64,000 bases of DNA from Escherichia coli (GTDB lineage: Bacteria > Pseudomonadota > Gammaproteobacteria > Enterobacterales > Enterobacteriaceae), in assembly GCF_013315695.1 (NCBI RefSeq), contig NZ_CP054353.1; one strand, written 5' to 3'. Of the stretch, positions 63,331-64,000 are shown in pieces. The notes beneath the pieces were generated by a model. It saw only the letters and a list, made by a program, of their open reading frames with translations. It was not told the origin of the DNA and searched no databases. A program made the translations under genes and the position numbers. Numbering within the stretch: the first letter of the stretch is position 1; each line of letters opens with the position of its first letter.

Positions 63331-63557
63331 AATAACCAATTGATTTATAATGTTTTATATCTCTTCGTTCCACGATGTGTCCACATTTAGTGGGGGGAGG
63401 GGAGTAAGCCCGCTACATTGTGGGCTTTGTCTTATAGTCTGATCACTGCTTCAAGTCGGTGAGGACACCAAAAAGAAAACCCGTAGTTTTTATGCTGCGG
63501 GTTTGTTTCATGTCTGTGAGATAGGGTGCCTTATCGACCTTACCCTGGCAACCGATT

Positions 63558-63579
63558 GACGGGGGATTGCTCCCCCGTC
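63558..63579 (-). other. 3' stem-loop of the putative hok-like mRNA (fbi-type element)
   Basis: Perfect GACGGGGGA-GCAA-TCCCCCGTC hairpin immediately 3' of the hok-like stop codon; hok-family mRNAs carry a stable 3' fold-back element. Confidence 0.4.
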
Positions 63580-63588
63580 GCGGTTTCC

Positions 63589-63729
63589 TTACTGCTTACA
63601 CTGTAAGAACGCCGCAAACTCCGCTCCCCAGAAGCTCATCCGTATTTCGCACAGTGAACCGTGCAGCATCCAGATGATGAGGATTGCCGTCACGCAGAAC
63701 GTGATGGCCGTAAGCGATTTTTGCGACAT
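63589..63729 (-). CDS. Hok/Gef-family type I toxin-like small membrane protein (46 aa)
   Basis: MSQKSLTAITFCVTAILIIWMLHGSLCEIRMSFWGAEFAAFLQCKQ: one transmembrane helix followed by the SLCEIR motif and a C-terminal E-x-AAF-x-x-C, the same layout as Hok of plasmid R1 (…[24 protein letters not shown]) as I recall it; AAGGAG Shine-Dalgarno 8 nt upstream. Confidence 0.6.
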   Translation of the reverse strand: MSQKSLTAITFCVTAILIIWMLHGSLCEIRMSFWGAEFAAFLQCKQ

Positions 63730-63859
63730 AGCACTTGCTCCTTTTCCGGAGAGGCGCTAACCTTTCACTTGTCAAGGTAATGCGGTTAGGGCCTCGGTTA
63801 AACAGAGATGTTTTCCGGGGCCTTTCCACATCTGGCCTTCGGGTATTCCCTCCGACCAT
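63596..63859 (-). other. mok-like overlapping reading frame (putative translational-coupling ORF for the hok-like gene)
   Basis: An 87-codon ORF in a different frame overlaps the whole hok-like CDS and stops 7 nt downstream of it, which is the hok/mok arrangement; true start unknown. Confidence 0.35.
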
Positions 63860-64000
63860 CAGCCGAAAGGCACCCGCGCGTAATTTACCGTTTCCTGAGT
63901 AAATTCTCCAAATAAAATTCCACAGTCAAAAGTACAGAAACAAAAACAGGTATGTGATCACATCGCCGGAAGTGGCAGCGACATCTGCGCATCACCACGG

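Follow-up and report, generated by a model that had tools for sequence, protein, structure and literature searches.

The type I toxin-antitoxin loci most similar to the one described here are hok/mok/sok (parB) of plasmid R1 and the hokB/sokB and hokC/sokC loci in the core chromosome of E. coli K-12. All encode a small Hok/Gef peptide with an N-terminal helix and a C-terminal cysteine motif. Their hok mRNAs start with GGGUGC, have a long structured leader, pair the 5′ end with the 3′ end and hold the hok Shine-Dalgarno sequence in a CUCC/GGAG hairpin. In R1, translation of mok up to the hok Shine-Dalgarno sequence is required (PMC9841398).

A prophage-borne type I system of E. coli has also been described. 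The hokW-sokW locus of the Stx2 prophage Sp5/933W (Takada et al. 2021) is partly RNase III- and Hfq-dependent and becomes activated on induction (PMC8621323). After mitomycin C, sokW RNA vanishes and HokW appears in a RecA-dependent manner, phage release is halved without the locus, and toxicity of HokW by membrane damage on expression has been reported (PMC8621323). Inhibition of phage T4 by R1 hok/sok is cited in the same study. As for integration sites, E. coli SE11 carries a 35.8-kb P2-like prophage, PP_SE11-4, located "between btuC and ihfA" with a 25-nt duplication (PMC2608844, Table 2). A search of the literature for work linking hok/sok with P2-like prophages gave no specific result.

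Here we analyse a 64,000-nt stretch of E. coli DNA (contig NZ_CP054353.1; hereafter the window) which ends in a hok-like locus on the minus strand downstream of ihfA. We consider it about 90% probable that everything in the window past 63329 belongs to the ogr-proximal arm of a P2-like prophage (Peduoviridae, P88/Xuanwuvirus-type), which carries a hok/sok-type cassette between its attachment arm and ogr and is inserted in the ihfA terminator core. Only 670 bp of the element lie inside the window, a length from which a full prophage cannot be told from a remnant. The locus, the Hok family and the integration site have all been annotated or published already.

The last host gene before the insertion is ihfA (62988..63287, plus strand), a 99-aa ORF; SCU-176 and K-12 both have ihfA annotated at this position. 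The window is the same as K-12 up to 63329, just past the ihfA terminator, and diverges from 63330 onwards. The gap between ihfA and btuC is only 100 bp in K-12; in the window no btuC sequence was found between 63329 and the end at 64000, and the inserted sequence is not present in the K-12 gap. An earlier note on this DNA, made from the letters alone, had proposed an insertion relative to K-12 from about 63330 with no btuC before the window end, which the alignment confirms.

The divergence starts at the edge of a 25-bp attachment core, GGCCGCTCTGCGGCCTTTTTTCTTT (63305..63329), which consists of the ihfA terminator hairpin and its T-run. In SCU-176, the same 25 bp are found at both ends of a prophage of around 35 kb between ihfA and btuC. 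The gene order there is ihfA, hok, an ogr/Delta-like gene, a full P2-type set (tail, baseplate, lysis, capsid, terminase, portal, replication, repressor, integrase) ending with the integrase, and btuC. PP_SE11-4 occupies the same ihfA-btuC site with a 25-nt duplication as well. We propose that the prophage entered by site-specific recombination at this core, the ihfA transcription terminator; a prophage at this position separates ihfA from btuC.

The next stretch, 63330..63445, is a phage attachment-site arm. Within it, 63340..63444 has 76% identity to a stretch beside the integrase gene of phage Chuche, and because of this homology we assign it to the phage arm of the attachment site. A phage search with the attachment-arm stretch alone returned Chuche only, plus the hok terminator of P88.

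The arm also contains a hairpin on the plus strand (63406..63427, AAGCCCGC..GTGGGCTT) that a terminator scan scores as terminator-like. Its stem is paired in Chuche too, with one position being G-U here and G-C in Chuche. It could bind a protein or, once the phage is circular, terminate the operon on the integrase side.

At its other end, the window is cut within an ogr/Delta-like late-gene activator, of which the last 13 codons and the stop are present (63958..64000, minus strand). These translate to RGDAQMSLPLPAM followed by the stop codon and match the Ogr-like C-termini compared, those of no107 (RGDAQLSLPLPAM, then stop) and SCU-176 (RGNNQMSLPLPQN, then stop). An ogr/Delta-type gene adjoining the attachment site is a feature of P2-like prophages, and it is found here as far as those 13 codons allow.

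The note had described a chromosomal hok/sok-type module, possibly at the edge of a larger island. The module is present and the island is the ogr-proximal arm of a P2-like prophage, as indicated by the SCU-176 gene order, the 25-bp core and the ogr end; the module is thus phage cargo and not a free-standing chromosomal insertion. A free-standing module between ihfA and btuC with no phage link, comparable to K-12 hokB or hokC, would account for the leader architecture, which the K-12 chromosomal hok loci share, and only 670 bp of the insert can be seen. Nevertheless, we regard such a module as very improbable: the junction coincides precisely with the 25-bp core found on both flanks of a P2-like prophage, the stretch 63340..63444 has its homologue beside a phage integrase gene, an ogr-like gene is cut by the window end, and all copies examined adjoin ogr or sit in phage genomes.

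Three other RNA matches were recorded in the window. Rfam STnc540 (RF02082, an enterobacterial sRNA) matches 63229..63373 (plus strand), over the ihfA 3′ end and terminator, with 41.1 bits against a gathering score of 38; past the terminator the alignment to the model is poor, in keeping with a replacement of the downstream sequence by the prophage. The ES036 (CssrF) sRNA model matches 35495..35537 (minus strand) with 38.9 bits (gathering score 37.6, E = 2.8e-4). The Phe leader (RF01859) is found at 59409..59533 (plus strand, 74.4 bits), in its expected place ahead of the pheS-pheT operon.

The hok module is widespread. At a threshold of at least 80% of the query covered, we found it in 1538 of the 5426 complete E. 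coli genomes. A single genome contains as many as 7 copies, and 295 genomes carry it at the ihfA junction. Among phages, the module has 92-98% identity in the Peduoviridae P88, P884B11, 500465-2, Chuche and PhiR44_2, and around 81% in Stx phages such as 933W. In every prophage locus examined ogr adjoins the module, with integration at serS, flk, ytfP, raiA or ihfA. For Chuche and P884B11 the module lies between ogr and the attachment/integrase side. The Xuanwuvirus phages P88 and P884B11 carry the same hok cassette next to ogr, the ogr position being unannotated in the P88 record.

Some related phages and prophages (three loci) have extra cargo between hok and the attachment site, either a DNA methyltransferase with a Com regulator or a gene for a TM2-domain protein; the stretch thus accommodates cargo that varies among these P2-like phages. 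The copy in 933W (AF125520) is a 46-aa hok cassette between L0129 and lom, at around 3001..3373 of the stretch examined and with around 81% DNA identity. It encodes MSQKSLITVTICMTVIFTIWMLHGSLCEFRLNLWGAEFAAFLQCKQ, is unannotated in the original record AF125520 and is distinct from the published hokW.

While the window locus resembles these P2-like relatives, its ogr allele and the hok -35 region (from 63894) belong to a rarer lineage. The last 107 bp of the window have no close match among the 5426 complete E. coli genomes: this ogr and -35 region reach 85-92% identity in two genomes only, at other attachment sites, and the best match of the 141-base query 63860..64000 has 85% identity over the full length and 92% over the first 83 bases. 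Comparison of the alleles indicates a recombination breakpoint at 63893/63894, within the spacer of the hok promoter. Downstream of it the sequence follows the common ihfA-site lineage with 99% identity, and upstream of it the -35 region, linker and ogr follow the rare lineage of strains no107 and AR_0085.

The cassette itself encodes a 46-aa peptide on the minus strand (63589..63729, MSQKSLTAITFCVTAILIIWMLHGSLCEIRMSFWGAEFAAFLQCKQ), which by homology is a membrane toxin of the Hok/Gef family. It has both an N-terminal hydrophobic helix, with the stretch LTAITFCVTAILIIWML, and a cysteine-bearing C-terminal part, with the motifs SLCEIR and AAFLQC. The Pfam model HOK_GEF (PF01848) matches with E = 4.8e-7 and 29.7 bits, residues 7-44 aligning to model positions 5-42 of 42, and PHROG 251 "MokW-like host killing" covers the peptide end to end (E = 1.3e-22). 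The BLASTP match to K-12 HokC has E = 3e-6 with 30% identity over 33 residues. For the identical locus, RefSeq/PGAP gives the label "Hok/Gef family protein" (WP_000078916.1). The Hok/Gef signature read by eye in this ORF is thus present and backed by significant family matches.

The peptide is nonetheless distant from the described members of the family. It shares only 24-26% protein identity with HokC and HokB, which have 50 and 49 aa, respectively, and it scores far below the NCBIfam cut-offs for HokA (34 vs 89 bits) and Hok (21.6 vs 73 bits); it thus represents a distinct, shorter subfamily.

Like the window locus, hokW-sokW is a prophage-borne hok/sok of E. coli, and the PHROG 251 "MokW-like" label matched by the window Hok is also found on hok genes in Stx and P2-like phage records. 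The cloning primers (MKQQKAM..., ...DYESEK) show HokW to be a separate, Gef-like paralog of 51 aa. Primer sequences and length thereby rule out that the window locus is the published hokW-sokW, and the hokW phenotypes transfer to it only by analogy.

Conservation of the ORF was examined across 11 alleles. The length of hok is 46 aa in all of them, and substitutions between close alleles are mostly synonymous with no new stop in the hok frame; new stops are present among alleles in the other two frames. The predicted hok mRNA comprises around 405 nt from 63875 to about 63470 on the minus strand; folded at full length (63875 to 63469), it reaches -172 kcal/mol (z = -7.35 against shuffles). Since the fold departs this far from shuffled sequences and change within hok is mainly synonymous without new stops, the minus-strand locus is not a chance occurrence.

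The start and promoter of this mRNA were placed at 63867..63911 (minus strand) by alignment with hokC and hokB, which share conserved leader blocks with the minus strand of the window, the hexamers being read from the sequence. The start GCGGGTGC (63875) is invariant between the window locus, K-12 hokC, K-12 hokB and the phage copies, and it opens a tac-like 5′ end, GGGUGCCUU (63875..63867). The putative promoter has a -10 TAAATT (63887..63882) and a possible -35 TTGGAG (63911..63906). Rfam RF01794, the sok model, matches 63716..63875 from model position 1 with 48.4 bits (E = 1.6e-9). Given that the match lies on the hok-sense strand and below the gathering score of 59, we take it only as a sign that the leader resembles known hok leaders.

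The 3′ part of the mRNA contains three elements. A stable stem-loop (63558..63579, minus strand) with a perfect 9-bp stem and a 4-nt loop lies 10 nt past the hok stop codon, and its pairing is kept through compensatory changes in AZ184, AR55 and 933W; by analogy with plasmid R1, it is likely the stop point for 3′ trimming. Further downstream is an fbi-like box, AAGGCACCC (63524..63532, minus strand), complementary to the mRNA 5′ end. The mRNA is closed by an intrinsic terminator (63478..63510, minus strand), a hairpin followed by UUUUCUUUUU, which is conserved in most alleles, has a perfect stem in SCU-176 and one C-A mismatch in the window allele. Both the stem-loop and the hairpin with its T-run had been pointed out in the earlier note, and both hold up.

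In silico, the two ends of the mRNA are joined. The segments 63875..63867 and 63532..63524 pair in the minimum-energy and centroid folds, and the 5′ end has an unpaired probability of 0.02 in the full-length fold. The GGCACCC of the fbi-like box is kept in 10 of the 11 alleles amid otherwise variable 3′ sequence, the exception being SCU-176 with GGCACUC. This predicted pairing corresponds to the tac/fbi closure that characterises hok mRNAs. In the full-length fold, all of the hok Shine-Dalgarno sequence (GGAG, 63741..63738) is paired, in a CUCC/GGAG hairpin like that of the R1 and K-12 loci.

Folding the mRNA after removal of the 3′ end up to the stem-loop gives a different structure, in which the 5′ end pairs with GGAAAGGCCCC (63828..63818). 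With fbi lost, the Sok target (63771..63790) is predicted to become partly exposed, its unpaired probability going from 0.25 to 0.47. This refolding parallels the established tac/ucb switch of R1 parB (PMC9841398).

A Sok-like antisense RNA is predicted at 63771..63831 (plus strand) by positional homology to the annotated K-12 sokC and sokB. This places it within the range of roughly 63740..63860 where an antisense RNA on the plus strand had been expected but could not be mapped. It would consist of a single-stranded 5′ tail (around 63771..63788), a hairpin (63789..63823) and a short U-run, with a fold of -26.4 kcal/mol (z = -3.4). SokC and SokB occupy the corresponding position and are built alike, from a 5′ tail followed by a GGCCUCGG/CCGGGGCC hairpin. 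All ten alleles compared, SokC and SokB among them, retain the hairpin, with three pairs changed on both sides, and an invariant U-G pair in it corresponds to a C-A mismatch on the opposite strand.

The putative Sok promoter (63735..63763, plus strand) has a -35 TTGCTC (63735..63740), a 17-nt spacer and a -10 TAACCT (63758..63763), a layout that resembles the R1 Sok promoter. The -35 overlaps the hok Shine-Dalgarno sequence on the other strand. Most of the block is kept across the 11 alleles, and its match to consensus is weak. A promoter scan of 63250..64000 called no sigma-70-like site and neither the hok nor the Sok promoter, both of which are poor matches to the sigma-70 consensus; the two promoters are thus proposed from positional homology only.

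Upstream of the terminator region, no other block of the transcribed leader and coding sequence varies as much among alleles as the predicted Sok tail with its target (63764..63788). Here 16 of 27 columns (59%) vary and 1-nt indels are found, compared to 0 of 8 columns in the adjacent hairpin stem and 13 of 35 in the Sok promoter block. This pattern may reflect allele-specific pairing between Sok and hok.

Could the cassette be a decayed relic, its toxin or regulation inactive, that a cryptic prophage merely brings along? Inactivation of this kind is reported for several K-12 hok loci, the window allele has the C-A mismatch in the terminator stem of the mRNA, no mok frame is conserved (see below), and the completeness of the prophage is not visible in the window. 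We consider decay improbable. The 46-aa ORF is intact in 11 of 11 alleles, which differ by mostly synonymous changes and no stop; the 5′ end, fbi box, Sok hairpin and Sok promoter block are largely conserved; and the same module is found in phages deposited as complete genomes.

The one point at which the cassette departs from the textbook R1 model is its leader frame. An ORF of 87 codons overlapping hok (63596..63859, minus strand), described before as mok-like, does exist, and comparison between alleles gives no support to the mok-like label. The frame is not conserved: of the 9 alleles with differences inside hok, 8 have new stops in it, and no ATG, GTG, TTG or near-cognate codon reads into hok in any frame in 5 of 11 relatives (P88, Chuche, P884B11, 933W and GF66.2). 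The missing starts and acquired stops reject it as a conserved gene, and the 87-codon frame is probably not a gene.

Its 87-aa product had no family match in PHROG and NCBIfam, and the frame opens with an ATG at +17 of the mRNA, within the 5′ stem. At the position of the K-12 mokC/mokB start, the window has no AUG or GUG but an ATT (63781, +95) and a TTG (63775, +101), and the nearest GAGG is 10 nt upstream of the ATT and 16 nt upstream of the TTG. While mok is required in R1, this feature of the R1 family has no conserved counterpart here. The locus would work like hok/sok, yet it appears not to be a strict copy of the R1 circuit.

Our model of regulation draws solely on plasmid R1 and on folding in silico. 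In it, a weak promoter would yield the stable hok mRNA of around 405 nt (63875 to about 63470), inert while its 5′ end is paired with the 3′ fbi box and its Shine-Dalgarno sequence is held in a local hairpin. Slow shortening from the 3′ end, as far as the stem-loop at 63558..63579, would remove fbi, whereupon the 5′ end would re-pair with 63828..63818 and a new hairpin would expose the Sok target. The short, unstable Sok-like RNA would bind this target through its 5′ tail, and the duplex would be destroyed. Once the supply of Sok stops, by prophage loss or a block in transcription, Hok would be made and the inner-membrane potential would collapse. In the predicted trimmed mRNA the hok Shine-Dalgarno sequence is still mostly paired (unpaired probability 0.11) and no mok frame is conserved; both points count against the model at the activation step.

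As a tentative idea, to which we give somewhat less than even odds, this 46-aa phage-borne Hok could define a mok-free subfamily in which Sok controls hok by another route, and the variable Sok tail and target (63764..63788) could define orthogonal specificity groups. Other routes for Sok would be cleavage of the duplex or locking of the leader fold.

What the phage gains is probably retention of the prophage by addiction, the alternatives being help with lysis at induction or exclusion of other phages. A main role other than addiction, either faster host lysis and phage release on induction (as for hokW-sokW) or abortive infection (as for R1 against T4), is a serious contender, though we hold it to be less probable than not. 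It draws on the loss of sokW and RecA-dependent HokW after mitomycin C with halved release without the locus, on the T4 inhibition by R1 hok/sok cited there (both PMC8621323), and on the place of the module among variable cargo, where some phages have a methyltransferase/Com pair or a TM2-domain gene next to it. Against it, hokW is a different paralog of 51 aa, and a search of the PADLOC defence models gave no match.

For the strain studied here, a hok-carrying P2-like prophage in the ihfA terminator explains why btuC does not follow ihfA, and the significance of the finding lies mostly in correct annotation: the small ORF is phage cargo, probably aiding the persistence or spread of the prophage. 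If the orthogonal groups are real, several prophage copies, up to 7 per genome, could coexist without cross-neutralisation. More generally, a common Hok subfamily, present in around 28% of complete E. coli genomes and without a conserved mok, would provide a natural test of how general the coupling of hok to mok is.
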